Assembly: GCA_018882895.1 (NCBI GenBank)
Contig: VERF01000004.1
Span: forward strand, 554 to 64,553
Direction: 5' to 3'
Source of the DNA: Candidatus Kapaibacterium sp.
GTDB lineage: Bacteria; Bacteroidota; Ignavibacteria; Kapaibacteriales; Kapaibacteriaceae
Length of the DNA stretch: 64,000 bases
In this document: in pieces, positions 1-64,000 of the stretch
How the letters are laid out: each line of letters starts with the position of its first letter
Position numbering within the stretch: position 1 is the stretch's first letter
Program-made: the position numbers and the translations under genes
Notes under the pieces: model-generated
Told to the model about the DNA's origin: nothing
The model's input: only the letters and a program-made list of their open reading frames with translations
Database searches by the model: none

Positions 1-1
1 T

Positions 2-628
2 TCCTGCGGTCGGTATGGGAATGGCTCCAAATCCGCTGATGCATTTGGTGTTGAGGCCTACCTTCGAACACCAATCTCTCCTGCCGTCAACCTGATTGCG
101 ATGGTCGGGGGAGCGAATGCGGCAAACCGCTCCACCTGGTCTGTTCTGAGTGACAATATTTCACACACACTGGACAGTAACGGGACATACCAAACACGCG
201 TCGGCAGTCATTCGCTCTCGTATTCCTCACAATCAACAGCTGGCATGATCGGCATCGGAATTGAGCTTCGCTCGTTGAGTATCATTCCATTCATTCGTGT
301 CACTTCTATTCGCCAAGCATCAACCGTTCGTAGGATGAGCAATGAGCAGCCGTCAGATGCCATCTTACCGGTTCATCCGGGATTTACCTATGAAGACAAC
401 GGTCGTACCGTCGTTTTGCAACGTCTCGGAGTTCAGGACCATACATCGACGGTCGTCTCTGCAGGATTGATGTTCGGCTACACGGTTACCTACTCAGTCT
501 TTGGTGTAACCCTTGACAACAGCCTGCAGGCTTACGGTGTGTCTGGGCTATCATCGATACACCAGCGATACACCACCAATCTCTCCTATGAGATCGGAGC
601 CCGATTGTTCATGGGCGTTCGGCTCTGA
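2..628 (+). CDS. 3' part of a gene entering from the left edge; beta-rich probable outer-membrane/secreted protein of unknown function
   Basis: Frame 2 is open from nt 2 to the stop at 626-628 (I translated 2-100 by hand and found no stop). The ORF track lists only the Met-started part 101..628. The sequence is G/S/T/Y-rich with an alternating beta-strand-like pattern. No family motif recognised. Confidence 0.4.
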   Translation, partial: SCGRYGNGSKSADAFGVEAYLRTPISPAVNLIAMVGGANAANRSTWSVLSDNISHTLDSNGTYQTRVGSHSLSYSSQSTAGMIGIGIELRSLSIIPFIRVTSIRQASTVRRMSNEQPSDAILPVHPGFTYEDNGRTVVLQRLGVQDHTSTVVSAGLMFGYTVTYSVFGVTLDNSLQAYGVSGLSSIHQRYTTNLSYEIGARLFMGVRL

Positions 629-681
629 GCATTTGCGCCGGGAGCTGCGACAGTGTTGGTCACACTACCAACTCAAGCCCC

Positions 682-2037
682 CTACCCGATCACCATGCGC
701 AATGCTTCGGAAAGGCGCTCAACATGGAAGACTGGGCCTGAAGAAACGCCCCGTGCCGGAGCATAGATGCGCTCGAGGCCAAGGCGAGTAGATTCGGAGA
801 CGCGCTGATCCAGATGCGATACGCGGCGCACCTCTCCAGTAAGGCCAAGCTCACCCACGAACACCACGCCTGAGGGAAGGGGCTGATCCGTTACGCTGCT
901 GGCAATGGCCATGGCGATGCCAAGATCAACGGCGGGATCCTGCACGGCGATGCCGCCGGCCACATTCACAAATACGTCCGCCTGACGTACCTGGACGCCC
1001 CCTCGCTTTTCTAGCACGGCCAGGATCATCTGGAGTCGACGATTGTCGTAGCCCGTGCACACGCGCTGCGGCACACTGTAACCGCTCGGCGACACCAATG
1101 CCTGTACTTCGATCAGCAGCGGACGCGTGCCCTCCATCACGGCTACGATGGCCGTTCCAGACTCATTGACGCTTCGCTGCGAGAGCAAAACTTCGCTCGG
1201 ATTCGAAACCTCACGAAGTCCCAATGACGTCATATCGAACACACCGATCTCATTGGTCGAACCATAGCGGTTCTTGAGCGCTCGCAGCACACGGTAGGAA
1301 TACGTTCCGTCTCCCTCGAACTGCAGAACCGCATCAACAATGTGCTCAAGCACCTTGGGTCCGGCGATCATGCCATCCTTGGTCACATGACCGATGATAA
1401 ACATCGGTACGCCCCGTTCCTTGGCCACGCGCGTCAGCAGCGATGTGCATTCTCGAACCTGTGCAACGCTGCCGGCAGACGACTCAAGATTCTCCGTTGT
1501 TACCGTCTGAACAGAGTCGACGATTACCACTGAAGGATTCTCATTGGCAATCAGATGAACGATTCGCTCAACGTTTGTCTCGGAGGCCACCACAATGCCT
1601 GCAGCGTCAACACCCAGACGTTCTGCTCTCTGCTTGATCTGATGCAGGCTCTCTTCACCCGTCACGTAGAGACAGGGTCGCTCCTCCGACACGCGTCCCA
1701 CGTGCGATGCCAGCTGAAGCATGAGTGTGCTTTTGCCCATGCCGGGGTCGCCCCCTACCAGAACCATACTACCCGGGACGATACCTCCACCAAGAACGCG
1801 GTCCAGTTCCTGCATACCCGTGGGTATGCGCCGAACACGCTCAACGTCGACCGAGCCGAGACGCGTAGCGGAACCGCCGGCGATCGTGCTGAGGCGCTTC
1901 TTACTGGAAGAAGAACTCGATGCTGCATCGACCTCTTCGATCATGCTTTCCCATGCGCCACATCCCGGACATCGTCCAACCCATTTTGGCGTGGAGTGCC
2001 CACAACTGGAACAGCGATAGAGGGTGCGTATTTTCAT
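682..2037 (-). CDS. radA: DNA repair protein RadA/Sms
   Basis: N-terminal zinc ribbon YRCSSCGHSTPKWVGRCPGCGAWES, Walker A GGDPGMGKST, KNRYGSTNE motif and a Lon-like C-terminal domain. ATG at 2037 (MKIRT..) preferred over the upstream ATG at 2070; 'cat' verified at 2035-2037. Confidence 0.93.
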   Translation of the reverse strand: MKIRTLYRCSSCGHSTPKWVGRCPGCGAWESMIEEVDAASSSSSSKKRLSTIAGGSATRLGSVDVERVRRIPTGMQELDRVLGGGIVPGSMVLVGGDPGMGKSTLMLQLASHVGRVSEERPCLYVTGEESLHQIKQRAERLGVDAAGIVVASETNVERIVHLIANENPSVVIVDSVQTVTTENLESSAGSVAQVRECTSLLTRVAKERGVPMFIIGHVTKDGMIAGPKVLEHIVDAVLQFEGDGTYSYRVLRALKNRYGSTNEIGVFDMTSLGLREVSNPSEVLLSQRSVNESGTAIVAVMEGTRPLLIEVQALVSPSGYSVPQRVCTGYDNRRLQMILAVLEKRGGVQVRQADVFVNVAGGIAVQDPAVDLGIAMAIASSVTDQPLPSGVVFVGELGLTGEVRRVSHLDQRVSESTRLGLERIYAPARGVSSGPVFHVERLSEALRMVIG

Positions 2038-2067
2038 ACCGTGATTGCGATCGGAAAGTGGTGAATT

Positions 2068-2075
2068 CAAAGCTA
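2068..2075 (-). promoter_or_regulatory. Candidate Bacteroidota-type -7 box (TAGCTTTG = TAnnTTTG) upstream of radA
   Basis: Plus-strand CAAAGCTA at 2068-2075 lies 31 nt upstream of the 2037 ATG. No convincing -33 TTG at the expected spacing. Confidence 0.3.
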
Positions 2076-2096
2076 GGAAATGTTCAACGGGCGGTG

Positions 2097-3029
2097 ATGC
2101 TTGACCAACAGACAGCGGCAGCGTACGACGTGTGCCAGCGGGTAACGAGGACCCATGCGAAGACGTTCTATGCGGCTTCGCACTTCATCCCTGCCGATAA
2201 ACGCAATGCCTGTTATGCCGTATATGCCTTTTGTCGGTACGTCGACGATATTGTTGATGTGGCGATGGAACGGGGCGACGTGACACGTGCTGATGCCGTT
2301 CGACTCGTTGAACAGTGGCGTAGCGAGGTCAGCACCGTGTATTCAGGCAATCGAGTGATCACCGATGGCCCGGTAGATCCCGCTCAGCAGGATCGAGCCG
2401 CCGTGCTTCTTGCGTGGGAAGACACGCTTCAGAAGTACTCGATCCCACCGAATCTGCCCGAGGAGCTCATCGAAGGCGTTCTGATGGATACCACCATCAC
2501 TCGCTTCGCCACATACGACGAGCTTGCGGTGTATTGCTACAAGGTGGCCTCCGTGGTGGGCCTGATGACGTCCGAGATCTTCGGCTATTCCTCGCCCGAT
2601 GCCCTTTCCTACGCCGTTGATCTTGGCATCGCGATGCAACTGACCAACATCATTCGAGATGTGAAAGAGGATGCCGTCAGGGGGCGAATCTATCTGGCCA
2701 AAGAGGACATGGACTTGTTCGAGGTTTCAGAGGCTGACATTCTTGAGAGTCACTTTACTCCCAACGTACGTGGCCTGATTGCTGAGTACATCCGCAGAGC
2801 CGACGTGCTCTATAGTCGAGCGGACGTCGGCATTGCCATGCTCGAACCGAGCAGCATGGTCACCGTCCTGCTGATGAGTCGCAACTACCAGAAGATCCTG
2901 CGCGCAGTTGAGAAAATGGACTACAACGTCTTCCTTGGTCGCGCAAGCATCGGCCCCCTGGCCAAGCTCATGGCCGTTCCGTCGGCCTACTTTGAAGCAC
3001 GCCGTCTACGACGGGCTCAGCTGAAGTAA
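2097..3029 (+). CDS. crtB: Phytoene/squalene synthase family protein (CrtB-like)
   Basis: Motifs YAVYAFCRYVDDIVD and MQLTNIIRDVKEDAVRGRIYLAKED (the two Asp-rich regions of the trans-isoprenyl diphosphate synthase head-to-head family). ATG at 2097 avoids overlap with radA. Whether the product is phytoene or squalene cannot be decided here. Confidence 0.8.
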   Translation: MLDQQTAAAYDVCQRVTRTHAKTFYAASHFIPADKRNACYAVYAFCRYVDDIVDVAMERGDVTRADAVRLVEQWRSEVSTVYSGNRVITDGPVDPAQQDRAAVLLAWEDTLQKYSIPPNLPEELIEGVLMDTTITRFATYDELAVYCYKVASVVGLMTSEIFGYSSPDALSYAVDLGIAMQLTNIIRDVKEDAVRGRIYLAKEDMDLFEVSEADILESHFTPNVRGLIAEYIRRADVLYSRADVGIAMLEPSSMVTVLLMSRNYQKILRAVEKMDYNVFLGRASIGPLAKLMAVPSAYFEARRLRRAQLK

Positions 3030-10302: not shown

Positions 10303-10407
10303 AGTTACCAGTTACGAGTTACTAGTTACTAGGTACTAGTTACTAGATACTAGTTACGAGGGACTAGTTAGTAGGGACTCGTTGCTGGGGACTAGTGCTT
10401 AGTGGGA
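10303..10407. repeat. Tandem heptanucleotide array, arm B (15 degenerate units, consensus AGTTACT on the + strand)
   Basis: Parsed by hand: AGTTACC AGTTACG AGTTACT AGTTACT AGGTACT AGTTACT AGATACT AGTTACG AGGGACT AGTTAGT AGGGACT CGTTGCT GGGGACT AGTGCTT AGTGGGA. It is the reverse complement of the 10444-10660 array and ends 11 nt from the atpF ATG. Confidence 0.95.
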
Positions 10408-10443
10408 GAATGTTGTTGTGAAAGACGCTGAACCGGCCCTAAG

Positions 10444-10660
10444 TACCTGGTACCTAGTACCCAGTAACTAGTACCTAGTAACTAGTACCTCGTACCTCGT
10501 ACCTAGTACCTCGTACCTAGTAACTAGTAACTAGTACCTCGTACCTAGTACCTCGTACCTAGTACCTAGTACCTAGTACCTAGTACCTCGTACCTAGTAA
10601 CTAGTACCTAGTACCTAGTACCTCGTACCTCGTACCTAGTACCTCGTACCTAGTGCCTCG
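10444..10660. repeat. Tandem heptanucleotide array, arm A (31 in-phase units TACCTAG / TACCTCG / TAACTAG on the + strand)
   Basis: 217 nt is exactly 31 x 7. Hand parse gives TACCTGG, TACCTAG, TACCCAG, TAACTAG, ... TGCCTCG. There are no unique spacers between units. Confidence 0.97.
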
Positions 10661-10714
10661 GTCGTCAAGCACGGGTAGGTACCGAGCCTGACGACCGACC
10701 CCGGCGTGCGGGGT
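10659..10714 (-). promoter_or_regulatory. Two adjacent GC-rich hairpins just downstream of the atpE stop
   Basis: CGGTCGTCA (10659-10667) pairs with TGACGACCG (10689-10697), a perfect 9-bp stem. ACCCCG (10698-10703) pairs with CGGGGT (10709-10714), a 6-bp stem with a 5-nt loop. No U-tract follows in the transcribed direction. Confidence 0.6.
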
Positions 10715-10729
10715 CGAGGGGTGTCAGAA

Positions 10730-10963
10730 TTATGGGTTCTTGACGGCCAGGAGGATACAAACGACGCCGGCAAGAAGGGCAACGCCTTCGATAAGGGCGG
10801 CGCCAATGATCATCGTCGTGCGGATATCACCGGCGTTTTCAGGCTGGCGGCTGCTGGCTTCGAGAGCGGCTGCTGCAAGGCGACCGATACCCGTGCCGAC
10901 GCCGAAAACCGTGATGCCGAGACCGAGGCCGGCTGACAACCAGGCAAATGCGACTGGATCCAT
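10730..10963 (-). CDS. atpE: Fo ATP synthase subunit c
   Basis: Two-helix proteolipid with loop SRQPE and the ion-binding Glu in GAALIEGVALL. ATG at 10963 (MDPVAF..) preferred over 10978. Confidence 0.93.
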   Translation of the reverse strand: MDPVAFAWLSAGLGLGITVFGVGTGIGRLAAAALEASSRQPENAGDIRTTMIIGAALIEGVALLAGVVCILLAVKNP

Positions 10964-11032
10964 GAGATTTCCTTCCAAAGTGAAGATGAATGAAGTGTGT
11001 TGTTAACTCTGTTTGACTTGTCGACGTGCGGA

Positions 11033-12142
11033 TCAGTGAGCTTCTGCGTGATGGTGGTCGTCATGGGCGTGATCACCCAAGGCAAGACCAACAAACACAG
11101 CCGAAAGCATGGTGAAGATGTATGCTTGAAGGAATGCCACAAGCAGTTCCAGCAGGTAGATGAAGACCGAGAACAGAACGCTGATTGGAGCAACACCCCA
11201 GCCAACCGTCGGACCCATCTCCTGTGCGAAGAAAAAGATCAAACCGACGAGCGACATCAGAACGATGTGTCCAGCGGTCATGTTCGCAAACAAACGAATC
11301 ATCAGTGCGAACGGCTTCGTGATGATGCCCACCAGTTCGATCGGAACCATGATCGGTGCGATGTACACGGGAGCGCCACCGAGTAGGTGCGCAAACCACG
11401 CCTTGACGCCGGCATCCTTGAATGCAATGTAGTTGACCACGATGAGCGTACATGTTGCAAGCGCCATCGTGACCGGTAGCGCGCCCGTTGCAGCGTGTGC
11501 ACCGGGGAGAAGCGAGATCAGGTTGAGCGTCAGAATGAAAAAGAACAGAGCCATCATAAATGGCATCAGTCTCTGCGCGCGCTTCTCGGTGCCTACGTTC
11601 GGCTGAACGATCTGATCGCGCACGTAGAGAACAATTGACTCAAGAACATTCTGAATACCGCGTGGGGCAGACATCGGAGCCTTGCGATACCGCGAACGCG
11701 CAATGGCAAACAGACCCGTCACAAGGATCATGGCGATCCACTGGTATGCCACGAAGTTGGTGATCGAAAGGTCAAGCGATGGTGACGCGTTTGGAAGCGG
11801 ACATGCTTCCTTCTCGGTGTGAGCTGCATGGGTGCGCACGATGTGATGGCCATGACCCGGGTGGTGCATTGTGAACTGACCACCATCTTCCATTGCATGC
11901 AGGTTCGCATACGTGTGAAAGGCATTGTCCTGATCCATCAGGATCACCGGCAGGATCTCGTAGTGTCCGAAGAAGATGTTCAATTCATGGTGATCACCAA
12001 GCTGATCCAGCAGCTTGTTGAACGTGAACTTCCCATCTGAATGCTCCGCGCCGTGTCCGGTGGCATGAGCACCGGCAGCGGCATGAAGACTGTCTGCCGA
12101 CGGCTGCGTTGAATCGTGCTGTTGTCCGTGTTCGTTGTTCAT
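11033..12142 (-). CDS. atpB: Fo ATP synthase subunit a, with His-rich N- and C-terminal extensions
   Basis: C-terminal half carries the conserved LFANMTAGH (essential Arg in LMIRLFANM) and the LLELLVAFLQAYIF helix. The N-terminal extension of about 130 aa and the C-terminal tail are rich in His. Confidence 0.92.
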   Translation of the reverse strand: MNNEHGQQHDSTQPSADSLHAAAGAHATGHGAEHSDGKFTFNKLLDQLGDHHELNIFFGHYEILPVILMDQDNAFHTYANLHAMEDGGQFTMHHPGHGHHIVRTHAAHTEKEACPLPNASPSLDLSITNFVAYQWIAMILVTGLFAIARSRYRKAPMSAPRGIQNVLESIVLYVRDQIVQPNVGTEKRAQRLMPFMMALFFFILTLNLISLLPGAHAATGALPVTMALATCTLIVVNYIAFKDAGVKAWFAHLLGGAPVYIAPIMVPIELVGIITKPFALMIRLFANMTAGHIVLMSLVGLIFFFAQEMGPTVGWGVAPISVLFSVFIYLLELLVAFLQAYIFTMLSAVFVGLALGDHAHDDHHHAEAH

Positions 12143-17082: not shown

Positions 17083-17103
17083 CTGCCGAAGGGGGCTCGG
17101 CAG
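17083..17103 (-). terminator. Hairpin after clpC with the AGGGGGC word as its loop
   Basis: CTGCCGA (17083-17089) pairs with TCGGCAG (17097-17103) and the loop is AGGGGGC. On the minus strand it is followed by a pyrimidine/T-rich stretch (TATCCTCTGTTTCTTCC). It lies between the clpC stop (17115) and the UDG start (17042). Confidence 0.45.
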
Positions 17104-43313: not shown

Positions 43314-45158
43314 ATGTTTCGTTTTGTTGCCAGCGTCATCGCACTGGCAGTCTGCGTATCGGCCGGCGCGCAGGACTTTCCGGTGCGAATCGAACCCGTG
43401 ACGATCATTCCCTATCTGCAGGGCCGTGTGGTTGTCCCTCCGTCTCCGCTCAAGTATCAGAACATCTTTGTGGGAGCCGTCGACACGGTTGAAACCAAGG
43501 ATGGTAAGGCTGTTGCAAAGCAATGGCACGACTACATCGGCTATGCTGCAGATCCAACCGGCAACTCTCTCGGCTACGCCATCGTTAACCACGAAATGAT
43601 CGAATCCAATGACAAGATTGGCGACGGCGGTGGCATGACGATGTTCAAGCTTGGCAAGAAGGCTGACGGAACTCTGGAAGTGCTCAATCAGACCCTATCT
43701 GATGGTCGCTCAGGTAAGTTCTTCAATGTCGACTTCAAGAACACCGTGGGCGAAACGGGCATGAACTGCGGCGGCATGTCATGGAGCAACCGCGTCTGGA
43801 CAGCTGAAGAGTGGTATCAGACAACGAACAAGATGATCAACGCCGACGGCAAAGGATTCCGCGACACGACGGACTTCGAGATCGGCAAGATGCTGCCGTC
43901 CGGTTTTCCGGGCCTCGATGGAAAGAAGATCAAGCGCTACGAGAATCTCAACTGGATGGTTGAGATCGACCCTGTCAACGCAAAAGCTATCCGAAAGCAA
44001 TACAACTGGGGACGCCAAGGATTCGAATCCGGAGTCACGATGTCTGATTCCAAGACCGTATATCTGTTTGAGGACGGTGAAGTAGGCAAGTCGCTTCTGA
44101 CGAAGTTCGTTGCCGACCAGCCGGGTGACTTCACCAAGGGCAAGCTGTATTTCTATAAGCAGGATGCCGGCGCATTCACCGGCACATGGGTGGAAGTTCC
44201 AAACGATCCCGCCACAAACTGGGACATCATGGTCGCCCCTCACGCATGGGCAAAGACCAAGGGCATCACCGGCTTCACGCGTCTCGAATGGGGTCAGATC
44301 AACAAGACCGATGGCAAGATCTACATCACTGAGACAGGCAATGACCGGCCGGGTTCGCGCTACAAGGCTGCCCTGGCCGAGGGGTGGACGCTTCCGAAGC
44401 ACACGTATGATCGCGCCACGGCGCAGGGCGTCACGATCGACAGCTCTGCCTACTGGGACTATTACGGACGCGTGTTGGTGTTTGATCCAAAGGACAACTC
44501 CGTTCGCGCCTACATTGAGGGCGGACCGTACGTGACAGATGCCAACGCCACGATGAACAAGTATCCCGAAAAGCACCTTTCCAATCCCGACGGCATTGGT
44601 TTCCTGTATGTCAATGGCAAGACCTTCATGGTCATTGAAGAGGACCTCAATGGTGTGAGCTTCGGTCGCATGCCAAACACCGGAATGCGCGGTACGAATT
44701 GCGAAGCATGGCTGCTCGATATGTCGAAGGAACCGACCATCGACAACCTCTATCGCTTGGCGATCTCTCCATACGGATCCGAGATCACCGGTTTTGCATC
44801 ATTCGACGATGGCAACACAGTTCTGATCAACTCTCAGCACCCCGACAATGCCACCATCAGTGACAATGCCGCAAAGAACTCCCTGACGTTTGCCATCACA
44901 GGCTTGAAGCAACTCGTCAGCAGCATCGACAACGATGATGATCAGAAGGATCAAGCCGGCATTCGTGTCTTCCCGAACCCGACATCATCGCAGATCCAGT
45001 TCACACAGTCGACAGATGCTGCTCTCTATGATGCCACAGGTGCTCGCGTTCGCGTCATGCGCGAATCTTCAACAATGGATATCTCAGACCTTGCTTCAGG
45101 CGTCTACTATGTCCGCTTCGTCGATGGTTCGACTCGTCAGGTCGTCATCGAGCGCTGA
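43314..45158 (+). CDS. Secreted beta-propeller-like protein (PhoX/DUF839-like?) with T9SS C-terminal sorting domain
   Basis: Signal peptide MFRFVASVIALAVCVSAGAQ. The LSNPDGIGF motif is reminiscent of PhoX/DUF839. Tail VFPNPTSSQIQF...SGVYYVRF. A GGAG lies 8 nt upstream of the ATG. Confidence 0.65.
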   Translation: MFRFVASVIALAVCVSAGAQDFPVRIEPVTIIPYLQGRVVVPPSPLKYQNIFVGAVDTVETKDGKAVAKQWHDYIGYAADPTGNSLGYAIVNHEMIESNDKIGDGGGMTMFKLGKKADGTLEVLNQTLSDGRSGKFFNVDFKNTVGETGMNCGGMSWSNRVWTAEEWYQTTNKMINADGKGFRDTTDFEIGKMLPSGFPGLDGKKIKRYENLNWMVEIDPVNAKAIRKQYNWGRQGFESGVTMSDSKTVYLFEDGEVGKSLLTKFVADQPGDFTKGKLYFYKQDAGAFTGTWVEVPNDPATNWDIMVAPHAWAKTKGITGFTRLEWGQINKTDGKIYITETGNDRPGSRYKAALAEGWTLPKHTYDRATAQGVTIDSSAYWDYYGRVLVFDPKDNSVRAYIEGGPYVTDANATMNKYPEKHLSNPDGIGFLYVNGKTFMVIEEDLNGVSFGRMPNTGMRGTNCEAWLLDMSKEPTIDNLYRLAISPYGSEITGFASFDDGNTVLINSQHPDNATISDNAAKNSLTFAITGLKQLVSSIDNDDDQKDQAGIRVFPNPTSSQIQFTQSTDAALYDATGARVRVMRESSTMDISDLASGVYYVRFVDGSTRQVVIER

Positions 45159-45212
45159 CCTTCGTCAGGGGGCTTCTATTCTCTGTCGACCAAACAGTTC
45201 ATCGTAATCAAC

Positions 45213-47238: not shown

Positions 47239-48393
47239 ATGAGTCTGGCAATTGCACTGGTTTTGATGTTCAGCGGCATCGCTGCGGTTTCGGCTGCAGA
47301 TACCGTGCGTGTGGCGTCCTACAATCTTCTGAAGTTCAGTCAGGACAACGAGGACGGTCGAATTCCGATGTTCAGGCAGATCCTGGACTCGATTCGGCCC
47401 GACGTCGTAGTCTGTTCAGAGGTGGCCGACGCAACGGTCGGGCCTCGGTTCGTTTCAGATGTGATGCGGTGGGCTCCATTTGCAGCTACGCCATACTACG
47501 ATGGACCCGATACAGATATCCTGGTGCTATATAACCAGTTGAAATTCAGCCTCCTTGGCACGCGGCGCATTCCCACAGAGCTGCGGGACATCTTTGAGGT
47601 AACGCTTGAGCATTTGGATAAGGACGGCAGGGCCGACGACACGGTCGTCGTCTATGGCCTGCACCTAAAAGCATCTTCGAGCTCCTCCGATGAGCAGCAA
47701 CGTACGCGTGAGATGACGGCTCTTGTGTCGAACATTACACAGCGACGCAATGCCGTCATTTGCGGAGACTACAATGTCTATCGTCCCGACGAACCGGCAC
47801 TGCAAGCACTGATAGGTCCAAGCGCAAAGCGCCAATTCGTAGACCCTCTCGGTTCAAACTGGCGTCGTAACGACGTTGCCTTCGCCTCATTCTACACGCA
47901 GTGCACGCGGGCAACGACAATCGCCGGCTGTGGTGGCGGCGTTGACGGTGGAATCGATGATCGGTTTGATTTCATTCTGCCAAGTGCGGAGCTCGCACCG
48001 CGCGTTCTAACGTCCACCTACACGGCATTTGGTAACGATGGTGCTGCACGCTTCAACAAATCCATCGATGATCCGCCAAACACAAAGGTCAGCGCCAGCA
48101 TGGCTGCCTCCTTGAAATGCGCCTCCGATCACCTGCCGATCTATGTTGATATCGTGATGGGCGAGCTGTTCACATCCGTCGGCGACGACGCTGCCACAGG
48201 CTGGTGGAAGTGTGATGGTCGAACGATCACCATCATGGGGGGCACCCCCGATGTGACCATCTACTCATCTCAGGGACGGCGCGTGTCCGTTCTGCCGATG
48301 TCGCAAATGGTCCAGACCATCGATGACCTACCCACAGGCTCATACATCATTCACCGGGCCAACGCAGTAGTCCGTGCGGTGATCATACGCTAG
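47239..48393 (+). CDS. Secreted endonuclease/exonuclease/phosphatase (EEP) family protein, probable T9SS cargo
   Basis: Signal peptide followed by VRVASYNLLKF. Also VVCSEV, GDYN and a terminal SDHLPIYVDI catalytic motif. The C-terminal ~70 aa are beta-rich and end PTGSYIIH..VIIR. Confidence 0.8.
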   Translation: MSLAIALVLMFSGIAAVSAADTVRVASYNLLKFSQDNEDGRIPMFRQILDSIRPDVVVCSEVADATVGPRFVSDVMRWAPFAATPYYDGPDTDILVLYNQLKFSLLGTRRIPTELRDIFEVTLEHLDKDGRADDTVVVYGLHLKASSSSSDEQQRTREMTALVSNITQRRNAVICGDYNVYRPDEPALQALIGPSAKRQFVDPLGSNWRRNDVAFASFYTQCTRATTIAGCGGGVDGGIDDRFDFILPSAELAPRVLTSTYTAFGNDGAARFNKSIDDPPNTKVSASMAASLKCASDHLPIYVDIVMGELFTSVGDDAATGWWKCDGRTITIMGGTPDVTIYSSQGRRVSVLPMSQMVQTIDDLPTGSYIIHRANAVVRAVIIR

Positions 48394-48396: not shown

Positions 48397-48425
48397 TTAA
48401 AAAGGGGCTGGCGAAACAAGCCCCC
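48397..48425 (-). terminator. Intrinsic terminator between convergent genes (stem formed by the AGGGGC / GCCCCCT word pair)
   Basis: GGGGCT (48404-48409) pairs with AGCCCC (48419-48424). On the minus strand the hairpin is followed by TTTTT (plus-strand A-run 48399-48403), directly after the stop at 48431. Confidence 0.6.
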
Positions 48426-48430
48426 TAACA

Positions 48431-49405
48431 TCACTGACCGAGAAGCCAAGCAAAGATGAGCGGAGCGACGATCGTTGCGTCCGACTCAATGATGAACTTC
48501 GGCGTGGCGATATCGAGCTTGCCCCAGGTGATCTTTTCGTTCGGGACAGCTCCCGAATACGAACCATAGCTTGTTGTGCTATCCGAGATCTGGCAGAAGT
48601 ATGACCAGAACGGCACGTCGTGCCATTCCAAGTCCTGATACATCATCGGCACTACGCAGATAGGGAAATCGCCGGCGATACCGCCACCGATCTGGAAGAA
48701 GCCCACGCCCTTGCCTTCGGAGTTCTTACGATACCAGTCAGAGAGCCAGACCATGTAGTCGATGCCGCTTTTCATCGTGGTGGACGTGAGTTCGCCCTTG
48801 ATGCAATACGAGGCGAAGATGTTGCCCATCGTCGAGTCTTCCCATCCCGGCACCACGATCGGCAGGTTCTTCTCAGCAGCCGCGATCATCCACGAATTCT
48901 TGGGGTCGATCTCATAATACTGCTCCATCTCTCCGCTCAGGAGCATCTTATACATGTACTCGTGCGGGAAGTACCGTTCACCGGCGTCTTCGGCCATCTT
49001 CCATTGCTTGAAGATGTGCTTCTGGATGCGGCGAAATGCCTCCTCCTCCGGTATACAGGTATCGGTGACGCGGTTGAAGCCCCCTTCAAGAAGCTCCCAC
49101 TCATCCTTCGGTGAAAGGTCGCGGTAGTTCGGCACGCGCTTGTAATGCGAGTGCGCCACCAGGTTCATGATGTCCTCTTCCAGGTTCGCACCCGTGCAGG
49201 AGATGATCTGCACCTTATCCTGGCGGATCATCTCAGCAAGAGATATGCCCAGCTCGGCAGTACTCATGGCGCCGGCTAGGGTAACCATCATCTTGCCACC
49301 TTCGGCCAGGTGCGTCTCATAGCCCTTGGCTGCGTCGACAAGTGCGGCGGCATTGAAGTGCAGATAGTTCGATTCGATAAACTGTGATATCGGTCCGCGT
49401 TGCAT
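48431..49405 (-). CDS. Deoxyhypusine synthase-like protein (homospermidine synthase-like)
   Basis: LAGAMSTAELG, ISCTGANLEEDI, RVTDTCIPEE and GGGIAGDFPICVVPM, typical of the DHS family. ATG at 49405 verified. Confidence 0.85.
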   Translation of the reverse strand: MQRGPISQFIESNYLHFNAAALVDAAKGYETHLAEGGKMMVTLAGAMSTAELGISLAEMIRQDKVQIISCTGANLEEDIMNLVAHSHYKRVPNYRDLSPKDEWELLEGGFNRVTDTCIPEEEAFRRIQKHIFKQWKMAEDAGERYFPHEYMYKMLLSGEMEQYYEIDPKNSWMIAAAEKNLPIVVPGWEDSTMGNIFASYCIKGELTSTTMKSGIDYMVWLSDWYRKNSEGKGVGFFQIGGGIAGDFPICVVPMMYQDLEWHDVPFWSYFCQISDSTTSYGSYSGAVPNEKITWGKLDIATPKFIIESDATIVAPLIFAWLLGQ

Positions 49406-49432
49406 GTCGACTCCGTGTTCGAAAGTGGACGG

Positions 49433-49440
49433 CAAAATTA
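49433..49440 (-). promoter_or_regulatory. Candidate -7 box (TAATTTTG) for the DHS-like gene
   Basis: Plus-strand CAAAATTA at 49433-49440 lies 28 nt upstream of the 49405 ATG. No clear -33 element. Confidence 0.3.
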
Positions 49441-49486
49441 CCACGGATAGGCCTCTGCGCAGTCTGCAGAGCCATATATTGCCACC

Positions 49487-50566
49487 ATGGTACAGCATAT
49501 TCCATGGGCCCGGGTCACCGGTTTCGCGGCTGCCATCATTGCCCTTATCGCATCCGGCATCGTTCTGAAGAATCTGAGCGGCATTCTCATCCCGTTCGTC
49601 CTGGCCGGCTTCCTGTCGATCCTCTTCAAACCGCTGGTGCAGTTTTTGCGTGCCAAGGGCGTGCCGATGGCGATCTGCCTCATTCTCGTGCTCATCGTAT
49701 CAGGCTCAGCTCTCTGGATCGTCTATGTCATCGTCGCCGCCGGCATTGAGGCCTTTCAGGAACGATCCGCATTCTATTCCCAGCAACTTCAAAGCGTGAT
49801 TGCCTCAATGAATGAGGCCGTTGCCCCAATGCTCAAGAGAGCACGAATCAAATCCATCACGTGGGGCGACGTTGTATCGGCCGAGCGTGTGACATCGTTT
49901 GCAACCTCGCAGCTGACAGCGATCTTCTCTGTGCTGAGTGACGGATTGATGGTGTTGTTGTATCTGATGTTCATGCTCTTGGGACACGAGACATTCCCCG
50001 CCAAGGTTCGCTATGCGTTCACGGACGAGCGCGGAACCATGCTCCTGGCGCTGTTTCGCACGCTCAACACCAAGGTTCGCAAGTACCTGATCGTTAAGAC
50101 CGCCTTTAACCTTCTGAATGGCTTCATCACGTGGGCCATTTTGGCGGTCTTTGGCGTGGACTTCGCTCCTCTGATCGGTCTGCTGGCCTTTGTCTTCCAC
50201 TACATTCCAAACATCGGGTCAGTGATCTCTACGCTGATACCGGCGCTGTTGTTTCTGTTGCAGACTCGAGACATGGCTCAGGTTGCCATCCTCACTGCAG
50301 TGCTGACGGTGGTGCACAACCTCATTGGAAACACCATAGAACCAAAGGTCATGGGAGACCGACTGGATCTAAGTCCGGTGGTGGTTCTGTTCTCCCTCAT
50401 TTTTTGGGGATGGATGTGGGGGATCGTCGGCATGGTGCTGTCGATACCGATCATGGCCGTGGCCAAGGCACTCCTCGGCAGCGTTGAATCAACACGTCCG
50501 CTGGCCATCTTAATGGGAAGCGGTGAGCCCCCTACCGTCGAACTTCAAGAGCCCAGCGCGCCCTAA
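49487..50566 (+). CDS. AI-2E family transporter (PerM/YhhT-like permease)
   Basis: About 8 TM segments with a conserved C-terminal region FHYIPNIGSVIS...LFSLIFWGWMWGIVGMVLSIPIM. Confidence 0.85.
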   Translation: MVQHIPWARVTGFAAAIIALIASGIVLKNLSGILIPFVLAGFLSILFKPLVQFLRAKGVPMAICLILVLIVSGSALWIVYVIVAAGIEAFQERSAFYSQQLQSVIASMNEAVAPMLKRARIKSITWGDVVSAERVTSFATSQLTAIFSVLSDGLMVLLYLMFMLLGHETFPAKVRYAFTDERGTMLLALFRTLNTKVRKYLIVKTAFNLLNGFITWAILAVFGVDFAPLIGLLAFVFHYIPNIGSVISTLIPALLFLLQTRDMAQVAILTAVLTVVHNLIGNTIEPKVMGDRLDLSPVVVLFSLIFWGWMWGIVGMVLSIPIMAVAKALLGSVESTRPLAILMGSGEPPTVELQEPSAP

Positions 50567-52408: not shown

Positions 52409-52810
52409 ATGCAGTACTGGCTCGTGAAATCCGAACCTGAGGTCTATTCCTGGGAGCAATTCGTCAAGGACAAGCGAACGTTCTGGGACGGTGTGCGCAA
52501 CTACCAGGCTCGCAATAACATGCAGGCCATGGAAAAGGGCGACCAGGTGATCTTCTATCACTCGAGCGACGTCAAGGCAGCCGTCGGCATTGCCGAAGTC
52601 GTCAAGACCGCGTATCCGGATCCGACAACGGACGAGCCCGCATGGGTAGTGGTCGACTTGAAACCGGTTCGCCCCTTGAAAACTCCCGTCACCCTGGCAC
52701 AGATCAAGGCCATGCCGGCAATGAACAACGTCGCCCTTGTACGTCAGGCACGACTGAGCGTTCTGCCGCTTACGGCAGATGAGTTCGGGATGATCGTGAA
52801 GGGCGTTTAG
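52409..52810 (+). CDS. EVE (PUA-like) domain protein
   Basis: MQYWLVKSEPEVYSWEQF...WDGVRNYQARNNMQAMEKGDQVIFYHS is the canonical EVE/thymocyte-nuclear-protein-like start. 133 aa. Confidence 0.88.
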   Translation: MQYWLVKSEPEVYSWEQFVKDKRTFWDGVRNYQARNNMQAMEKGDQVIFYHSSDVKAAVGIAEVVKTAYPDPTTDEPAWVVVDLKPVRPLKTPVTLAQIKAMPAMNNVALVRQARLSVLPLTADEFGMIVKGV

Positions 52811-54309
52811 CCGCGCAGACGCTTCTTGAGCACATCGACGTCCTGGCGGATCTTCTTGTCCGTGTCGATGTAGTTCAGAATCTGCTGACAGGAGTGCAAC
52901 ACGGTCGTGTGGTCACGACCACCAAAGTGCAAACCAATGCTCTTGAGCGACGTCTGCGTCAGCTGCTTGGCAAGGAACATGCACATCTGACGGGCCAGCA
53001 CGATCTCATGCTTACGCGTCTTGGCCGAAAGCAATGCTACGTCGATCGAGTAATACTCGGAGACTTCCTTCTTGATCTCGTCGATCGTCAGAGTGCGGGC
53101 GCCGAACGAGTTCGAAACTCCACGAACCACCTCTTTGGCAAGCTCAATCGTCAGCTCACGGCTGTCGAGCGAAACCTTTGCCAACAATGAGATCAGACAA
53201 CCTTCGAGTTCGCGCACGCTACTTGTGACGTGGCGGCCAACGTATTCGAGCACATCGCCCGGGAGATCCATGCCTTCTTCCATGCTTTTCTGCTGGAGAA
53301 TGGCGATCCGTGTCTCGAGGTCAGGGGGCTGAATGTCCGTTGTAAGACCCCACTGGAACCGTGAGATCAGGCGCTCGTCGAGATCTGCCAGGTCCTTTGG
53401 TTGCTTATCCGAGGTCAGGATCAGCTGCTTGCCTTCCTGATGGAGGGCATTGAAGGTGTGGAAAAACATGTCCTGGGTCTTTTCCTTACCACCCAGAAAC
53501 TGAATGTCGTCCACAATCAGAACATCCACACCTCTGTAGAAACTCGTAAAGTCGGGCACCTTGTTGGTCTGGATGGCATTGATGTACTCCATCGTGAACT
53601 TTTCGGAGTTCGTATAGAGCACTTTCGCATTCGGGTTTCGTTGAAGGATACGGTTTCCAATGGCTTGGACAAGGTGTGTCTTGCCCAGCCCCGTAGGACC
53701 GTAGATCACCAGCGGATTGAATTTCGTTCGACCCGGATTGTCTGCAACGGCGATGCCGGCTGAAGTTGCAAGCTGGTTGTTCTCGCCACGGATGAAGTTA
53801 TCGAACGTGTACCGTGGATTGAAGTACGTCGGGAAGTGTGTGGTACGAACCTGCGTCTGAGTCTGCGGACGAGCTTCGGTAAACGGAAGCGAAGGCTGCA
53901 CGCCCGTGCGCATCGTCGGAAGCTTTACCGTGCGCTGATCCGATGCGGGGGCGTTGTCATCGACGACGACCTCGAATTGAACCTTCGCCTTAGCTCCGAG
54001 AACGCGCTGGACCGTCTTCTGCAGAAGATTGGAGTAGTGCTGCTCGATCCACTCGTAGAAGAAATGGCTTGGAAGCTCAAGAGTGATGTTGCTACCGTCC
54101 AATTTGGTCGGATGCATCTTCTCAAACCATGTCTTGTAGACCTGGTCGGAGACGTTATCGCGCACTATTGCCAGACACTGTTCCCACAATGAATCAACGT
54201 CTGCTGACGAAGTCCTCGCGGTACGCTGAGTTGTCTTGCCCGTTGGGTTGGTGTTCTGACCCGAGGGGCGCTCTGCGGAGAAAAGTTTGAGAGCGTCGTC
54301 GTTTTTCAC
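52807..54309 (-). CDS. dnaA: Chromosomal replication initiator DnaA
   Basis: LWEQCLAIVRDNV..YKTWF (domain I), AAA+ YGPTGLGKTHL, VLIVDDIQFL, and the domain IV DNA-binding motif GGRDHTTVLHSCQ. Confidence 0.96.
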   Translation of the reverse strand: MKNDDALKLFSAERPSGQNTNPTGKTTQRTARTSSADVDSLWEQCLAIVRDNVSDQVYKTWFEKMHPTKLDGSNITLELPSHFFYEWIEQHYSNLLQKTVQRVLGAKAKVQFEVVVDDNAPASDQRTVKLPTMRTGVQPSLPFTEARPQTQTQVRTTHFPTYFNPRYTFDNFIRGENNQLATSAGIAVADNPGRTKFNPLVIYGPTGLGKTHLVQAIGNRILQRNPNAKVLYTNSEKFTMEYINAIQTNKVPDFTSFYRGVDVLIVDDIQFLGGKEKTQDMFFHTFNALHQEGKQLILTSDKQPKDLADLDERLISRFQWGLTTDIQPPDLETRIAILQQKSMEEGMDLPGDVLEYVGRHVTSSVRELEGCLISLLAKVSLDSRELTIELAKEVVRGVSNSFGARTLTIDEIKKEVSEYYSIDVALLSAKTRKHEIVLARQMCMFLAKQLTQTSLKSIGLHFGGRDHTTVLHSCQQILNYIDTDKKIRQDVDVLKKRLRG

Positions 54310-60600: not shown

Positions 60601-60603
60601 TTC

Positions 60604-61790: not shown

Positions 61791-62900
61791 GCTGCGGAGT
61801 TGAGTTGGTCTTCCAGAAGCAGATATGCCTTGATGAGCTCGTCAATGTCACCATCCATCACCGAATGCACGTCCGTGATCTTTGTCTCCGTGCGGTGGTC
61901 GTTGACCATTGTGTAAGGTTGGAAGACGTACGAGCGGATCTGCGAGCCCCATTCAATTTTCTTCTTGGAACCTTCGATGGCGGCCTTGGCGGCTTCCTCT
62001 TCTTCGCGGCGGATCTGGTACAGGCGAGACTTGAGCATCTTCATCGCATGCTCGCGGTTGAGCAGCTGCGAACGCTCCTGCTGACAAGCCACTACCACAC
62101 CCGAAGGGATGTGACGCAGACGCACGGCGGTCTCGACCTTATTGACATTCTGGCCACCCTTGCCCCCTGATCGAAACGTGTCCATTTCCACGTCCGCAGG
62201 ATTGATGACGATCTCAACATCATCCTCCACCTCCGGGTACACGAACACCGAAGCGAACGACGTGTGACGTCGGGCATTGGAGTCATACGGGCTGATGCGA
62301 ACCAGACGGTGCACGCCGTTTTCTGCCTTGAGATATCCGTACGCATACCGGCCGCGTATCTCCAGCGTGCAGCTCTTGATACCCGCGGTATCGCCTTCCT
62401 GCTCTTCGGCAAGGTACACCTCGAAGCCGTGCTTTTCGGCCCAGCGAGTGTACATGCGCATGAGCATCTCGGCCCAGTCCTGCGCTTCCGTACCGCCGGC
62501 ACCGGCATTGATCGTTAGGATGGCATTGCGGTTGTCGTCCTGACCCGAGAGGATCTTGCGAAGCTCCAGCTCATCGACGGATGTCAGGCACTTGGCAAGT
62601 TCCGCAAGGATGTCCGACTCCATCGAGGAGTCGTCGGCCTCTTCGGCCAGTTCGATCAGGGCCTGCACGTCGCCGACGCTTCCCTGCGCCTGTTCCCAGG
62701 TCTGCACCCAGTCCTTCAGATTCGCAGCTTCCTGCATCAGCTTCTGGGCCTTCTGGGCATCATCCCAGAAATCCGGTGCTTGGGAGAGCATCTCCCGTTC
62801 TGCTATCTCGTCGCGCTTGCGATCGATGTCAAAGGAACCTCCGCAATTGGTCCACACGGTCGCGGAGTTCACTCACTTGTTGCTTTTGTGGCTCAAACAT
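61787..62900 (-). CDS. prfB: Peptide chain release factor 2, requiring a programmed +1 frameshift
   Basis: ORF0 is ATG at 62900 ... CTT TGA (stop at 62829-62831). The main frame continues as DIDRKRDEI.. and contains SPYDS (SPF-equivalent region) and the [17 protein letters not shown] motif. Confidence 0.93.
62828..62843 (-). promoter_or_regulatory. RF2 autoregulatory +1 frameshift site (SD-like GGAGG, 3 nt, CTT TGA C)
   Basis: Minus strand reads CGG AGG TTC CTT TGA CAT. Shifting +1 at CTT-T gives GAC ATC GAT = DID, matching the downstream ORF. Confidence 0.9.
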
Positions 62901-62934
62901 GGCGCAAAGATACGGAGCCCCGCTCGGCCAGCGG

Positions 62935-64000
62935 TTATTGCAGGGGGCTGGACAGGGTCAGGATCCATCCGAACGAGCCAAACCGGGCCAGCGGTCCCAC
63001 CGGCCAGCGCGCATCGACGCGTAGCATGAAGAGGTCGCTGATGAAGCTCGGGATCCGAGCCACGCCGAAGCCCGCCTCCATGTACACACCATTGGTGCTG
63101 TCGAAGCTGACGCCGGGCACAACGGCGCCGGCACGGTTCGTGGTGCTGATGCCGTTGAGGACGCCGATCAGATCCACTCCCCGACCAAAAGTGAGTCCGG
63201 GAAGGCCAATGGCCCGCCACCAGAGATCGGTGAAGTTGTGCTCGAGGCCGAAACGCACAAACTCCGTTCCGGCAAAGGCATTGATCCCAATGGTGGGAAA
63301 GTCCGACAGGATTCCGAACGTCGGGAATGCCCGCATTGCAACGAACCGGTATTGGTTCGGTGTTTCCGTTGCCTGCAAGCCCCCTGCCAGCGTCAGCTCC
63401 AGGAGCATCGGGGAGTATCCTGTTTCGTATGTGGGCAGACGCAGTGTGGTGGAGGCATCGACCGACCAGAAGGTTGCACCGGAGATGGTCTCTCGGCCGA
63501 CAACTCCATGGATAAGTCCCGAGAAGGGATCCGATGAACCGCCGAAGATCGACCCAAAGGAACGGGGCGTGCGAGCCGTCAGCGACAGCACCTGAAAATC
63601 ACCCTCGCGGGCCAACACGCGCGGACGCGGCAGCGAGTCGATAAGGGGCATGTTGATGTGACGCGACCAACTGGCCTCCATCGTTGTGATGACCCATCGC
63701 GAGCGCGCCTGAAGACCAAGAGCGAATCCGTCGCGACGATAGAAGTCCTGATACTCGGGGAACAACAGATTCGCCAGATCAATGCTGCTGAAACTCAGCT
63801 GGGTTGTTTTGGCCTCCTGCACGCTTGCCAACGACGAATAGACGCTTCCGGAGACGCCGAGTGAGAGTCTGCGAGCCCGGTACACGGTAGCATCCATTGC
63901 CACACGACCAAATCGTGTACCACCGGACCCGAAACCGCCCGACAACGTCATACGCACCGGAGCCAGCTTGGCGATGATCGATGCGCCATACACTGTCTGG
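62935..64000 (-). CDS. 3' part of a gene running off the right edge; beta-barrel-like outer-membrane protein (Omp85/other, uncertain)
   Basis: The frame stays open to nt 64000; the track start at 63993 is a GTG, not an ATG. Glycine/aromatic-rich alternating strands. No definitive family motif. Confidence 0.45.
   Translation of the reverse strand, partial: QTVYGASIIAKLAPVRMTLSGGFGSGGTRFGRVAMDATVYRARRLSLGVSGSVYSSLASVQEAKTTQLSFSSIDLANLLFPEYQDFYRRDGFALGLQARSRWVITTMEASWSRHINMPLIDSLPRPRVLAREGDFQVLSLTARTPRSFGSIFGGSSDPFSGLIHGVVGRETISGATFWSVDASTTLRLPTYETGYSPMLLELTLAGGLQATETPNQYRFVAMRAFPTFGILSDFPTIGINAFAGTEFVRFGLEHNFTDLWWRAIGLPGLTFGRGVDLIGVLNGISTTNRAGAVVPGVSFDSTNGVYMEAGFGVARIPSFISDLFMLRVDARWPVGPLARFGSFGWILTLSSPLQ

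Follow-up and report, generated by a model that had tools for sequence, protein, structure and literature searches.

The Chi words of E. coli (GCTGGTGG), B. subtilis (AGCGG), S. aureus (GAAGCGG) and L. lactis (GCGCGTG) are short, asymmetric and G-rich, and the word described here, ARGGGGC, resembles them in all three respects. Like Chi, it is frequent both within and between genes, is lineage-specific and varies between lineages. As its spacing suggests, its function may also depend on orientation, and the genome that carries it is predicted to encode AddAB. Every known Chi is read from its 3′ side, and known Chi words are 60–90% co-oriented with replication. ARGGGGC differs from them in showing no such co-orientation, in an over-representation that exceeds that of any described Chi, in regular spacing on each strand with tandem doublets in two genera, and in an excess that codon usage does not explain. 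The abundance of Chi in E. coli and S. aureus, by contrast, can arguably be explained by codon usage (bioRxiv 10.1101/2021.07.08.451572). In PMC2887965, the AddAB of a member of the Bacteroidota still had no known Chi sequence.

A further comparison is offered by the uptake sequences of Neisseriaceae (DUS, GCCGTCTGAA and its dialects) and Pasteurellaceae (USS, AAGTGCGGT). To our knowledge, all of these systems depend on a secretin and a PilB/PilT-type ATPase. ARGGGGC shares with them a density of about one per kb, equal orientations, no polarity, spacing more even than random, tolerance in coding DNA and dialects in related lineages (PMC2817400, PMC1939737). It differs in being only 7 bp long, in residing in a genome without type IV pilus and secretin, in not being depleted from coding DNA, in forming few inverted terminator pairs, in an exclusion between sites that is orientation-specific, and in doublets that some lineages favour.

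The KOPS and SRS words of FtsK and SpoIIIE (GGGNAGGG, GAGAAGGG) are G-rich and oriented too; a translocating motor reads them, and recognises them more strongly when copies adjoin or overlap. KOPS have a strong origin-to-dif polarity, and the KOPS-like GGGCAGGG shows a 79% skew in this genome, whereas ARGGGGC is non-polar. Cyanobacterial HIP1 (GCGATCGC) is likewise a hyper-abundant short word, found about once per kb in all reading frames as a lineage trait. It is, however, palindromic and linked to a methyltransferase, while ARGGGGC is asymmetric and without a matching methyltransferase.

Abundance and definition of the word

In the window (the whole 64,000-nucleotide stretch of DNA that was analysed), an exact search found 57 copies of AGGGGGC/GCCCCCT, 27 of them AGGGGGC and 30 GCCCCCT on the + strand. 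An earlier note had counted about 56 by eye (27 and 29), and all 21 of its example coordinates fell within 7 nt of true sites. Dinucleotide shuffles of the window gave 6.1 ± 2.5 copies, with a maximum of 14. The over-representation proposed in that note therefore stands, but its expectation of 15–20 copies was too high and the excess is larger than it had claimed.

Across the 2.57-Mb genome, AGGGGGC is the top-ranked 7-mer, with 2106 copies, ~13-fold over the order-2 Markov expectation. Under a maximal-order Markov model the excess persists but is just 1.27-fold (z = 11), since AGGGGG (z = 31) and GGGGGC, both contained in the word, share the same excess. The flanks of the G5 run are sharply defined: A_G5_C occurs 2106 times in the genome versus 63–173 times for each other flank pair, and in the window 57 of 73 exact G5/C5 runs (78%) carry the A...C flanks, in line with the "four fifths" reported before. 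The recurring G4 variant also proved real, AAGGGGC being present in 1642 copies (7-fold over the order-2 Markov expectation). Since AAGGGGC and AGGGGGC exclude one another in the same orientation, they form one functional class, ARGGGGC or A(A/G)GGGGC, of 7 bases, with ~3,700 copies over both strands of the genome and a density of ~1 site per 1.3 kb per strand.

The window (1–64000) holds 92 ARGGGGC sites, 57 AGGGGGC and 35 AAGGGGC, of which 48 lie on the + strand, 44 on the − strand and 14 in intergenic DNA. The 27 AGGGGGC on the + strand (2679–62948) start at 2679, 4733, 9574, 12972, 17090, 19191, 20168, 23048, 23092, 29130, 31889, 32730, 34600, 35604, 36632, 37269, 37828, 38614, 40348, 43128, 45167, 46997, 51892, 53323, 55771, 59308 and 62942. 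The 30 on the − strand (677–63385, GCCCCCT on +) start at 677, 997, 1750, 2953, 5246, 12578, 13746, 14969, 17244, 18732, 21484, 22455, 23243, 24408, 26709, 27758, 31565, 35540, 39268, 41506, 42916, 46935, 48420, 49079, 50527, 57624, 57788, 60242, 62162 and 63379. AAGGGGC starts on the + strand (21 sites, 877–63649) at 877, 6518, 8455, 12217, 16141, 16560, 20082, 21229, 23326, 24704, 24839, 25802, 27143, 34062, 41692, 41959, 48402, 58256, 59677, 60565 and 63643, and on the − strand (14 sites, 4328–59438, GCCCCTT on +) at 4328, 7268, 9536, 12530, 15897, 26213, 32768, 33290, 37797, 40540, 45506, 51308, 52671 and 59432.

A conserved DNA-level feature

Within genes, each of the six coding phases showed a 4–17-fold enrichment of the word over a synonymous-shuffle null, in which proteins and codon usage are preserved, with 1755 copies observed in total versus 270 under this null. 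The suggestion that we are dealing with a recognition-type DNA signal, and not with a peptide-motif or codon-usage artefact, is thus upheld. As had also been noticed, all codon phases and intergenic DNA carry the word; its density is similar in intergenic (0.89/kb) and coding DNA (0.80/kb), with no coding depletion. About 85% of sites lie inside genes at a sense:antisense ratio of 52:48, and the word shows no transcription polarity.

Between species at 77–81% DNA identity, 63–68% of the sites were identical, compared with 18–27% for control 7-mers. Four-fold-degenerate positions were conserved at 77–78% within sites and at 44–51% outside them (p = 2.5e-6 and 3e-9). This conservation indicates that ARGGGGC is maintained by selection and, as it extends even to silent codon positions, that the word is a genuine DNA-level signal.

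Genome-wide, sites are twice as frequent within 50 bp downstream of stop codons. The gene-end copies singled out previously agree with this: the AGGGGGC at 677–683 (− strand) overlaps the stop codon of radA (ORF 682–2070, − strand), and that at 45167–45173 (+ strand), 9 nt past the stop of ORF 43314–45158, forms part of the post-stop peak. The placement of copies inside terminator-like hairpins was correct for individual cases. As read from the sequence, the intergenic hairpin at 17083–17103 (+ strand) has the stem CTGCCGA/TCGGCAG and a 7-nt loop that is exactly AGGGGGC, and an inverted AAGGGGC ... GCCCCCT pair on both strands at 48402–48426 is terminator-like, lying between the convergent genes 47239–48393 (+) and 48431–49498 (−). 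Across the genome, such close inverted pairs are uncommon: 46 GCCCCYT..ARGGGGC pairs are spaced 20–40 bp, and pairs of this kind account for only a few percent of sites.

Orientation-specific spacing

The new observation here is that ARGGGGC sites exclude their neighbours in the same orientation only. Same-orientation sites exclude one another over ~500 bp, and opposite-orientation sites do not. The share of same-orientation pairs was 28.5% at <300 bp versus 49.8% at 1.2–3 kb (p ~1e-57). The same-orientation pair correlation was 0.06 at <20 bp and ~0.4 at 40–60 bp, climbing to 1 only by ~500–600 bp, compared with values of 1 or higher for opposite orientations. The exclusion also acts between AGGGGGC and AAGGGGC, is equal for sense-sense and antisense-antisense pairs, and was replicated in the congener G050, as well as in genera g16 and g19 beyond their doublets (see below). 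Control 7-mers showed clustering, not exclusion.

The window displays the same pattern, with 34 same-orientation adjacent pairs (median 866 bp) and 57 opposite ones (median 434 bp); among pairs <300 bp apart, 8 are same-orientation and 22 opposite. Its tightest same-orientation pair, at 23048–23098 (+ strand), lies within one gene with the sites 44 bp apart and is a rare exception to the exclusion. This orientation-specific spacing is an indirect sign that one strand may be read directionally.

The word was strand-balanced in every genome examined, consistent with the lack of skew described in the earlier note. Over a 400-kb stretch of a congener in which the GC skew keeps one sign, 213 versus 220 sites were counted by strand, and a leading-strand proxy gave 57% and 47.5% for the word and 79% for GGGCAGGG. 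No replication polarity was therefore seen in either comparison. By the same values, the word lacks the strong origin–terminus polarity of KOPS/SRS. From the absence of skew, the note had argued against a Chi-like or KOPS-like signal. Its non-polarity is correct, but the dismissal of Chi is countered by the orientation-specific spacing, which fits one-strand, directional reading, and by a genuine AddAB in the genome.

Candidate readers and dialects among relatives

Enrichment of the word is a family-wide trait of Kapaibacteria-like MAGs, with lineage-specific dialects. Sites are single in g1 and g18 and form tandem doublets in g19 (8–10 bp) and g16 (10–14 bp); genus g17 showed no word enrichment. 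Doublets numbered 367 in genome G060 (8–10 bp start-to-start), 49–64 in g16 and 0 in G000. We know of no precedent for tightly spaced tandem doublets in Chi; their appearance is closer to that of sites bound cooperatively by a dimeric protein or by one with tandem domains. The source organism is a freshwater bacterium, and its lineage is uncultured.

The earlier note had likened the word to DUS and USS. Under such a reading, a surface or periplasmic receptor would prefer word-bearing DNA, and biased uptake together with recombination would raise the density of the word. The shared traits listed above favour it; moreover, ComEC and DprA are present in the genome, radA lies in the window, and Riemerella columbina, also a member of the Bacteroidota, prefers its own DNA in transformation, with no signal defined (PMC7965970). 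However, ComEC and DprA are near-universal, which makes their presence barely informative, and neither a secretin (PF00263) nor a PilB/PilT-type ATPase (PF00437) was found in the genome, which is rated 100% complete. In USS systems, uptake does not depend on orientation, and a second USS nearby does not raise it further (PMC1939737, PMC7811141), so that exclusion would be expected in both orientations, with doublets unfavoured. The strictly same-orientation exclusion and the doublets favoured in g19 and g16 are both contrary to this, as are the undepleted coding DNA and the scarcity of close inverted pairs, and we regard uptake as unlikely. A by-product of methylation and biased repair, as with HIP1 or Dcm-Vsr, in which near-cognate mismatches are repaired toward a methyltransferase target, would fit the single transition separating AAGGGGC from AGGGGGC (the change expected if a methyl-C in the C-rich strand were deaminated) and the mild depletion of one-mismatch neighbours (0.4–0.95x). 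Yet no single neighbour is strongly depleted, and orientation-specific exclusion and doublets are left unexplained. Neither Vsr nor a C5-methyltransferase (PF00145) was found in the genome, and N6/N4 methyltransferases (PF01555, PF02384) were patchy, being absent from several congeners with 1200–2000 word copies; the search covered these three methyltransferase families. The methyltransferase target offered earlier as an alternative thus found no support, and we consider this origin very improbable. Least probable of all is an RNA-level or terminator element, formed by G/C hairpins at gene ends or acting in transcripts. The post-stop peak, the 46 inverted pairs at 20–40 bp and the two window examples described above speak for it, but the mostly genic location, the sense:antisense balance, the few close inverted pairs and the equal exclusion in sense-sense and antisense-antisense pairs speak against it, and the coding-phase and strand statistics largely refute it.

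Taken on its spacing and conservation, ARGGGGC is probably a functional signal that some directional DNA process reads strand-specifically, and its reader is most likely a directional DNA-repair motor rather than a DNA-uptake receptor. Judged by motifs, profile and predicted fold, the genome encodes a genuine AddAB. The AddA homologue scored 315 bits against addA_alphas and matched 3U44_A at 3e-49. The AddB homologue has the invariant four-Cys Fe-S set and the DYK nuclease motif and matched 3U44_B at 6e-13 by profile; the top five Foldseek hits of its AF2 model (pLDDT 82) were all AddB chain B (1e-29). RecC was not found in the genome. AddAB is the leading candidate reader, but its link to ARGGGGC is tentative because AddA, AddB and a second helicase-nuclease also occur in motif-less g17, at similar divergence. 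Just one AddB column (R136 to Q/E) sets g17 apart from every motif-bearing genus, which is no more than chance, and a low-power test saw no divergence asymmetry around oriented sites. Alternatively, the word could be a new kind of oriented, non-polar signal bound head-to-tail by a DNA-binding or translocating protein other than AddAB and not concerned with uptake, with motor loading, strand-specific repair marking or packaging as possible roles. The sharply defined, lineage-specific doublet spacing suggests that a dimer or tandem domains make cooperative contacts. Where the motif is present or absent is not mirrored by any of the candidate readers, and we know of no class that unites per-strand regular spacing and non-polarity with singlet/doublet dialects and a density that is the same in coding and non-coding DNA. 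No protein emerged as a candidate for such a role, however; FtsK is single-copy in each genome without an additional paralogue, and a Chi-like scanner would account just as well for every property but the doublets. We consider this alternative rather unlikely.

We tentatively propose that ARGGGGC is a Chi-like "self" signal at the DNA level, read by the AddAB helicase-nuclease; both AddAB as the reader and the Chi-like mechanism are possible rather than probable. AddAB would load at a double-strand end and degrade DNA until AddB reached the word on the 3′-ended strand, and would thereafter spare that strand and pass it to RecA. Each orientation would serve only enzymes arriving from one side, so that the two orientations would constitute sets independent of one another. 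Each set would be kept dense and evenly spaced by selection, or by a drive linked to recombination that acts on incoming linear DNA, and a second site shortly behind the first would add almost nothing. As both sets would be needed everywhere, no replication polarity would arise. GCCCCYT..ARGGGGC pairs were 1.2–1.7-fold enriched up to 600 bp, a weak effect (z ~2.3); in this arrangement, the DNA between the two sites would be shielded if the word were read from its 3′ side.

Abundance and DNA-level conservation of the word

An exact search of the window detected 57 AGGGGGC/GCCCCCT sites, 27 on the plus strand and 30 on the minus strand, which confirmed the site count (about 56) and positions that an earlier note had read from the sequence. 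Dinucleotide-preserving shuffles of the window yielded 6.1 ± 2.5 sites (maximum 14), so the excess claimed in the note was real but larger than it had estimated. Its remark that four fifths of G5/C5 runs carry A...C flanks was also accurate (57 of 73 runs, 78%). The window corresponds to G000:C35:554-64553, where G000 denotes the host assembly (2.57 Mb, 131 contigs, 56.7% GC). Across this genome, AGGGGGC occurred 2106 times, ranking top among all 7-mers, compared with 159 copies expected under an order-2 Markov model. A maximal-order model gave a ratio of merely 1.27, because the sub-words AGGGGG and GGGGGC share the same excess. Exact G5 runs were flanked by A...C 2106 times genome-wide, and by each other flank pair 63–173 times. 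As the positions outside the 7-mer carried at most 0.3 bit of information, the word is not a piece of a longer repeat, and a longer repeat or mobile element was ruled out as its source. A second word, AAGGGGC, was present in 1642 copies (7 times the expectation), and none of the one-mismatch neighbours of AGGGGGC was strongly depleted. A literature search for the word itself returned unrelated primers as the sole matches.

A simple codon-model ORF caller predicted 1807 genes (85% coding), and synonymous codons were shuffled inside each gene to give a null that preserves both the proteins and per-gene codon usage. AGGGGGC was found 1755 times within genes versus 270 in this null, with a 4- to 17-fold enrichment in each of the six strand-and-phase classes. 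These results ruled out a codon or peptide artefact, as the note had anticipated. Site density was 0.80 per kb in coding DNA and 0.89 per kb in non-coding DNA. AGGGGGC favoured the sense strand and AAGGGGC the antisense strand, the combined ratio being 52:48. The abundance and skew of Chi in E. coli and S. aureus have been argued to stem from codon usage (bioRxiv 10.1101/2021.07.08.451572), whereas AGGGGGC exceeded the codon-usage null in every frame.

Based on its RadA relatives, the organism falls among freshwater Kapaibacteria/Ignavibacteria-like MAGs of the Bacteroidota, in an uncultured branch. The word was enriched in all 18 congeners sampled, with 450–2100 copies of AGGGGGC compared to 50–150 of the reversed control word, and no excess was detected in 12 genomes that belong to the same order but to other families. 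Of the family's eight genera, seven showed a 3- to 7-fold enrichment of AAGGGGC; the exception, g17, showed none (ratio ≤1 in four genomes). Plus- and minus-strand counts were balanced in every genome examined.

Approximately 40 kb of the window could be aligned to the congeners G052 (81.5% identity) and G003 (77%). AGGGGGC sites were identical in 68% and 63% of cases, respectively, whereas all 7-mers were fully conserved in only 26% and 18.5%, and G/C-rich control 7-mers in 27% and 18%. At four-fold-degenerate third positions with an unchanged amino acid, conservation was 77% and 78% within sites versus 51% and 44% for the same codon families outside them (Fisher p = 2.5e-6 and 3e-9). As judged from these alignments, the conservation of both sites and silent positions indicates that purifying selection, or else an ongoing conversion force, maintains the sites irrespective of the encoded proteins. 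The cases available for judging compensatory turnover of lost sites were too few, and no asymmetry of divergence around oriented sites was seen, at low power.

Orientation-specific spacing without polarity

ARGGGGC, the two words taken together, comprised 3748 sites in G000, or one per 1.37 kb per orientation. The pair correlation of same-orientation sites was 0.06 below 20 bp, ~0.4 at 40–100 bp and ~0.6 at 100–300 bp, and it returned to 1 only by 500–600 bp. ARGGGGC..GCCCCYT pairs showed no depletion (0.9–1.35), and GCCCCYT..ARGGGGC pairs were mildly enriched (1.2–1.7) out to ~600 bp. Of all pairs closer than 300 bp, 28.5% had the same orientation, compared with 49.8% at 1.2–3 kb (binomial p ~1e-57). 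The exclusion held for sense-sense and antisense-antisense pairs alike. AGGGGGC and AAGGGGC also excluded each other in the same orientation (68, 114 and 135 pairs per bin versus a plateau near 183), and they therefore form one functional class. In contrast to this exclusion, five other abundant 7-mers used as controls clustered mildly in the same orientation. In a 400-kb stretch of the congener G050, both the enrichment (12-fold and 8-fold) and the exclusion (6, 13, 24, 29, then ~35 per bin) were reproduced, with flat counts for opposite pairs.

Site numbers per 10-kb window were sub-Poisson (Fano 0.6–0.7 versus 1.05–1.3 for controls), and the local difference between the counts of the two orientations was under-dispersed. 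There were no motif-free islands, the longest gap (8.1 kb) being as an exponential distribution predicts. One of the longest gaps, the 7.7-kb stretch G000:C59:831-8579, holds the genome's only N6_Mtase (type I HsdM-like), consistent with recent acquisition of an R-M island, even if a gap of this length could arise by chance.

The lack of strand skew described in the earlier note was borne out: in a 400-kb region of G050 where GC skew stays negative, 213 plus-strand and 220 minus-strand sites were counted, and in the complete genome G040 (genus g18) the balance persisted through the skew switch. With contig skew as a proxy, the share on the G-rich strand was 57% for AGGGGGC and 47.5% for AAGGGGC. 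On G000 contigs longer than 20 kb, this share was 79% for the KOPS-like GGGCAGGG, 77% for CGGGGGA and 70% for GGGAGGC; this genome thus has polar G-rich words, unlike ARGGGGC. No GC-skew switch was found around window positions 52807-54309 (minus strand), the 4-kb profile being negative on both sides.

The spacing took a different form in some sister genera. In G060 (g19), 33 tandem same-orientation doublets, mostly 8–10 bp from start to start, accounted for 66 of the 119 sites in 220 kb; they lay mostly within long ORFs, on both strands, with unconserved flanks. G034 (g16) contained 19 doublets with a spacing of 10–14 bp. G060 contained 367 copies of the arrangement ARGGGGC-N(1-3)-ARGGGGC, and the two g16 genomes 64 and 49, compared with none in G000 and 0–2 in nearly all other family genomes (reversed control ~0). 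Beyond the doublets, g16 and g19 again showed same-orientation exclusion, which extended to ~1.2 kb in G060, where sites are sparser. Avoidance of G-quadruplexes or slippage was ruled out as its cause, since it extends to 500 bp and doublets abound in these genera. In G040, single sites were enriched 5-fold, with too few pairs for an exclusion test.

In g17, the top over-represented words were GGCAAKG and the 10-mer GGYGGCAAGG, the latter with 66 copies (35 plus, 31 minus) in 400 kb of contig C8 of G036, or 7 times the G000 density. Both words are flanked by 3-periodic sequence, and copies of GGCAAKG show same-orientation clustering, so the GGCAAKG class looks coding-driven and may not be a true substitute signal.

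Candidate readers of the word

Because the word shows neither replication nor transcription polarity, the replisome, FtsK-type segregation signals, the ribosome and RNA polymerase are excluded as readers, and the lack of polarity points to a process able to begin anywhere and from either side. An RNA or terminator explanation is very improbable. The USS receptor binds duplex DNA regardless of orientation (PMC1939737), and two close USS give no extra uptake (PMC7811141). With such a receptor, any nearby second site would be redundant in either orientation, whereas here only same-orientation neighbours were, so the two orientations form functionally independent sets. This is what would be expected if one strand were read by something travelling one way. 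The earlier note was thus right that strand skew is lacking, but the exclusion fits one-strand, directional reading of the Chi-like kind, against which it had held that lack.

The same exclusion speaks against the DUS/USS likeness that the note had favoured. ComEC and DprA, which are near-universal, were present in G000, but neither a secretin nor a PilB/PilT-type ATPase was found in this genome, which is rated 100% complete. An uptake or transformation signal is therefore unlikely. The note's alternative, a methyltransferase target, was likewise unsupported. Neither a C5-methyltransferase nor Vsr was found in G000, and N6/N4 methyltransferase families were patchy, several congeners with 1200–2000 copies of the word having neither. 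Together with the lack of a strongly depleted neighbour, this ruled out VSP or methylation drive, and we give a methylation/repair explanation hardly any weight.

The feature is real and functional, and it is probably a signal read strand-specifically by some directional DNA process. Processing of double-strand ends, either at breaks in the chromosome or on incoming linear DNA, would fit. Even spacing in each orientation would minimize how much DNA is lost ahead of the first correctly oriented site. Inward-facing GCCCCYT..ARGGGGC pairs would shield the segment between them at both of its ends if the word were read from its 3' side.

AddAB was the only double-strand-end processing enzyme of this kind found, with no RecC detected in G000. 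AddA (1159 aa) combines a UvrD-type helicase with a PD-(D/E)XK nuclease (315 bits versus addA_alphas); among solved structures, B. subtilis AddA is its best match (3e-49). AddB (G000:C1:2720-5857, 1045 aa) has the invariant cysteines C717, C1019, C1022 and C1028 (C-x2-C-x5-C) and the nuclease motifs IDRID...DYK, and it matched B. subtilis AddB in a profile search (6e-13). In Foldseek, its AlphaFold model (pLDDT 82) matched AddB chain B along the full length in each of the top five hits (E ~1e-29), with AdnA and RecC coming next. AddB identity was 33–75% within the genus (RadA 84–90%) and 19–33% between genera; such fast evolution is unusual, and the Fe-S cysteines and nuclease motifs are nonetheless invariant among orthologues. 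Next to recJ (10336-12036) lies a 937-aa protein (G000:C90:7496-10309, minus strand) that carries a PD-(D/E)XK nuclease at its N terminus and an SF1B (Upf1/Dna2-like) helicase at its C terminus; it was detected in 48 of the family's 51 genomes and might be a second module for end resection.

Motif-less g17 has AddA, AddB and the nuclease–SF1B helicase at similar divergence, RecC was not found there, and FtsK is single-copy in each genome; none of these five discriminated g17 by presence. Just one AddB column, R136 (to Q/E), which adjoins the invariant W137, was constant across all motif-bearing genera yet altered in each of the four g17 proteins, a signal no greater than single-sequence genera show by chance.

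AddAB is a candidate reader that we put forward tentatively, on sequence evidence, and the link is weakened by its presence in g17, the doublets and the missing polarity. In the one relevant study located, from 2010, the Chi sequence of a Bacteroidota AddAB was still unidentified (PMC2887965). If AddAB reads ARGGGGC, the word provides a directly testable Chi candidate for this enzyme type, with natural singlet and doublet variants for recognition studies. We know of no precedent for tightly spaced doublets in Chi, and they suggest cooperative binding. It is possible, though somewhat doubtful, that a reader other than AddAB is yet to be found, in which case the word could be used to track down a new DNA-reading system.

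Genome-wide signal words (Chi, KOPS, USS/DUS, HIP1) are few, and each opened a field. The properties of ARGGGGC overlap with those of both Chi and USS/DUS and fully match neither, and the chance that it is something new is substantial. A bolder and rather doubtful reading is an undescribed signal class read by neither AddAB nor an uptake receptor. In this reading, an oriented word would recur at regular intervals along each strand separately, with no polarity relative to replication or transcription; its reading unit would switch between singlet and tightly spaced head-to-tail doublet from one sister genus to another, and one genus would have lost it. The evidence for DNA-level selection is cleaner than for Chi, as it covers all frames, silent sites and regular per-strand spacing. 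Orientation-specific pair correlation also offers a simple general test, in any genome, for distinguishing strand-read from duplex-read signals.

Other repeats in the family

The 8-bp unit AAGGGGCG forms short tandem arrays on contigs C1, C2 and C5 of G050 (e.g. C1:26451-26473 and C5:40410-40512); these arrays include the motif word, yet are distinct from the g19 and g16 doublets. On G060:C40, a near-palindromic repeat built on CTCCGGGAGAGTTCTCCCGGAGA, with at least 15 copies in 220 kb, may be a REP- or MITE-like element of g19. Across its genome, G000 carries two kinds of mostly intergenic 7-bp tandem array: (GAGTGAC)n, with 214 copies of AGTGACGAG (161 intergenic), and (TACGGAT)n, with 314 copies of ACGGATTA (294 intergenic). 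Related (AGTGACA/G)n arrays are present in g17, on G036:C8 around 199.8 kb and at 364.9-366.3 kb.
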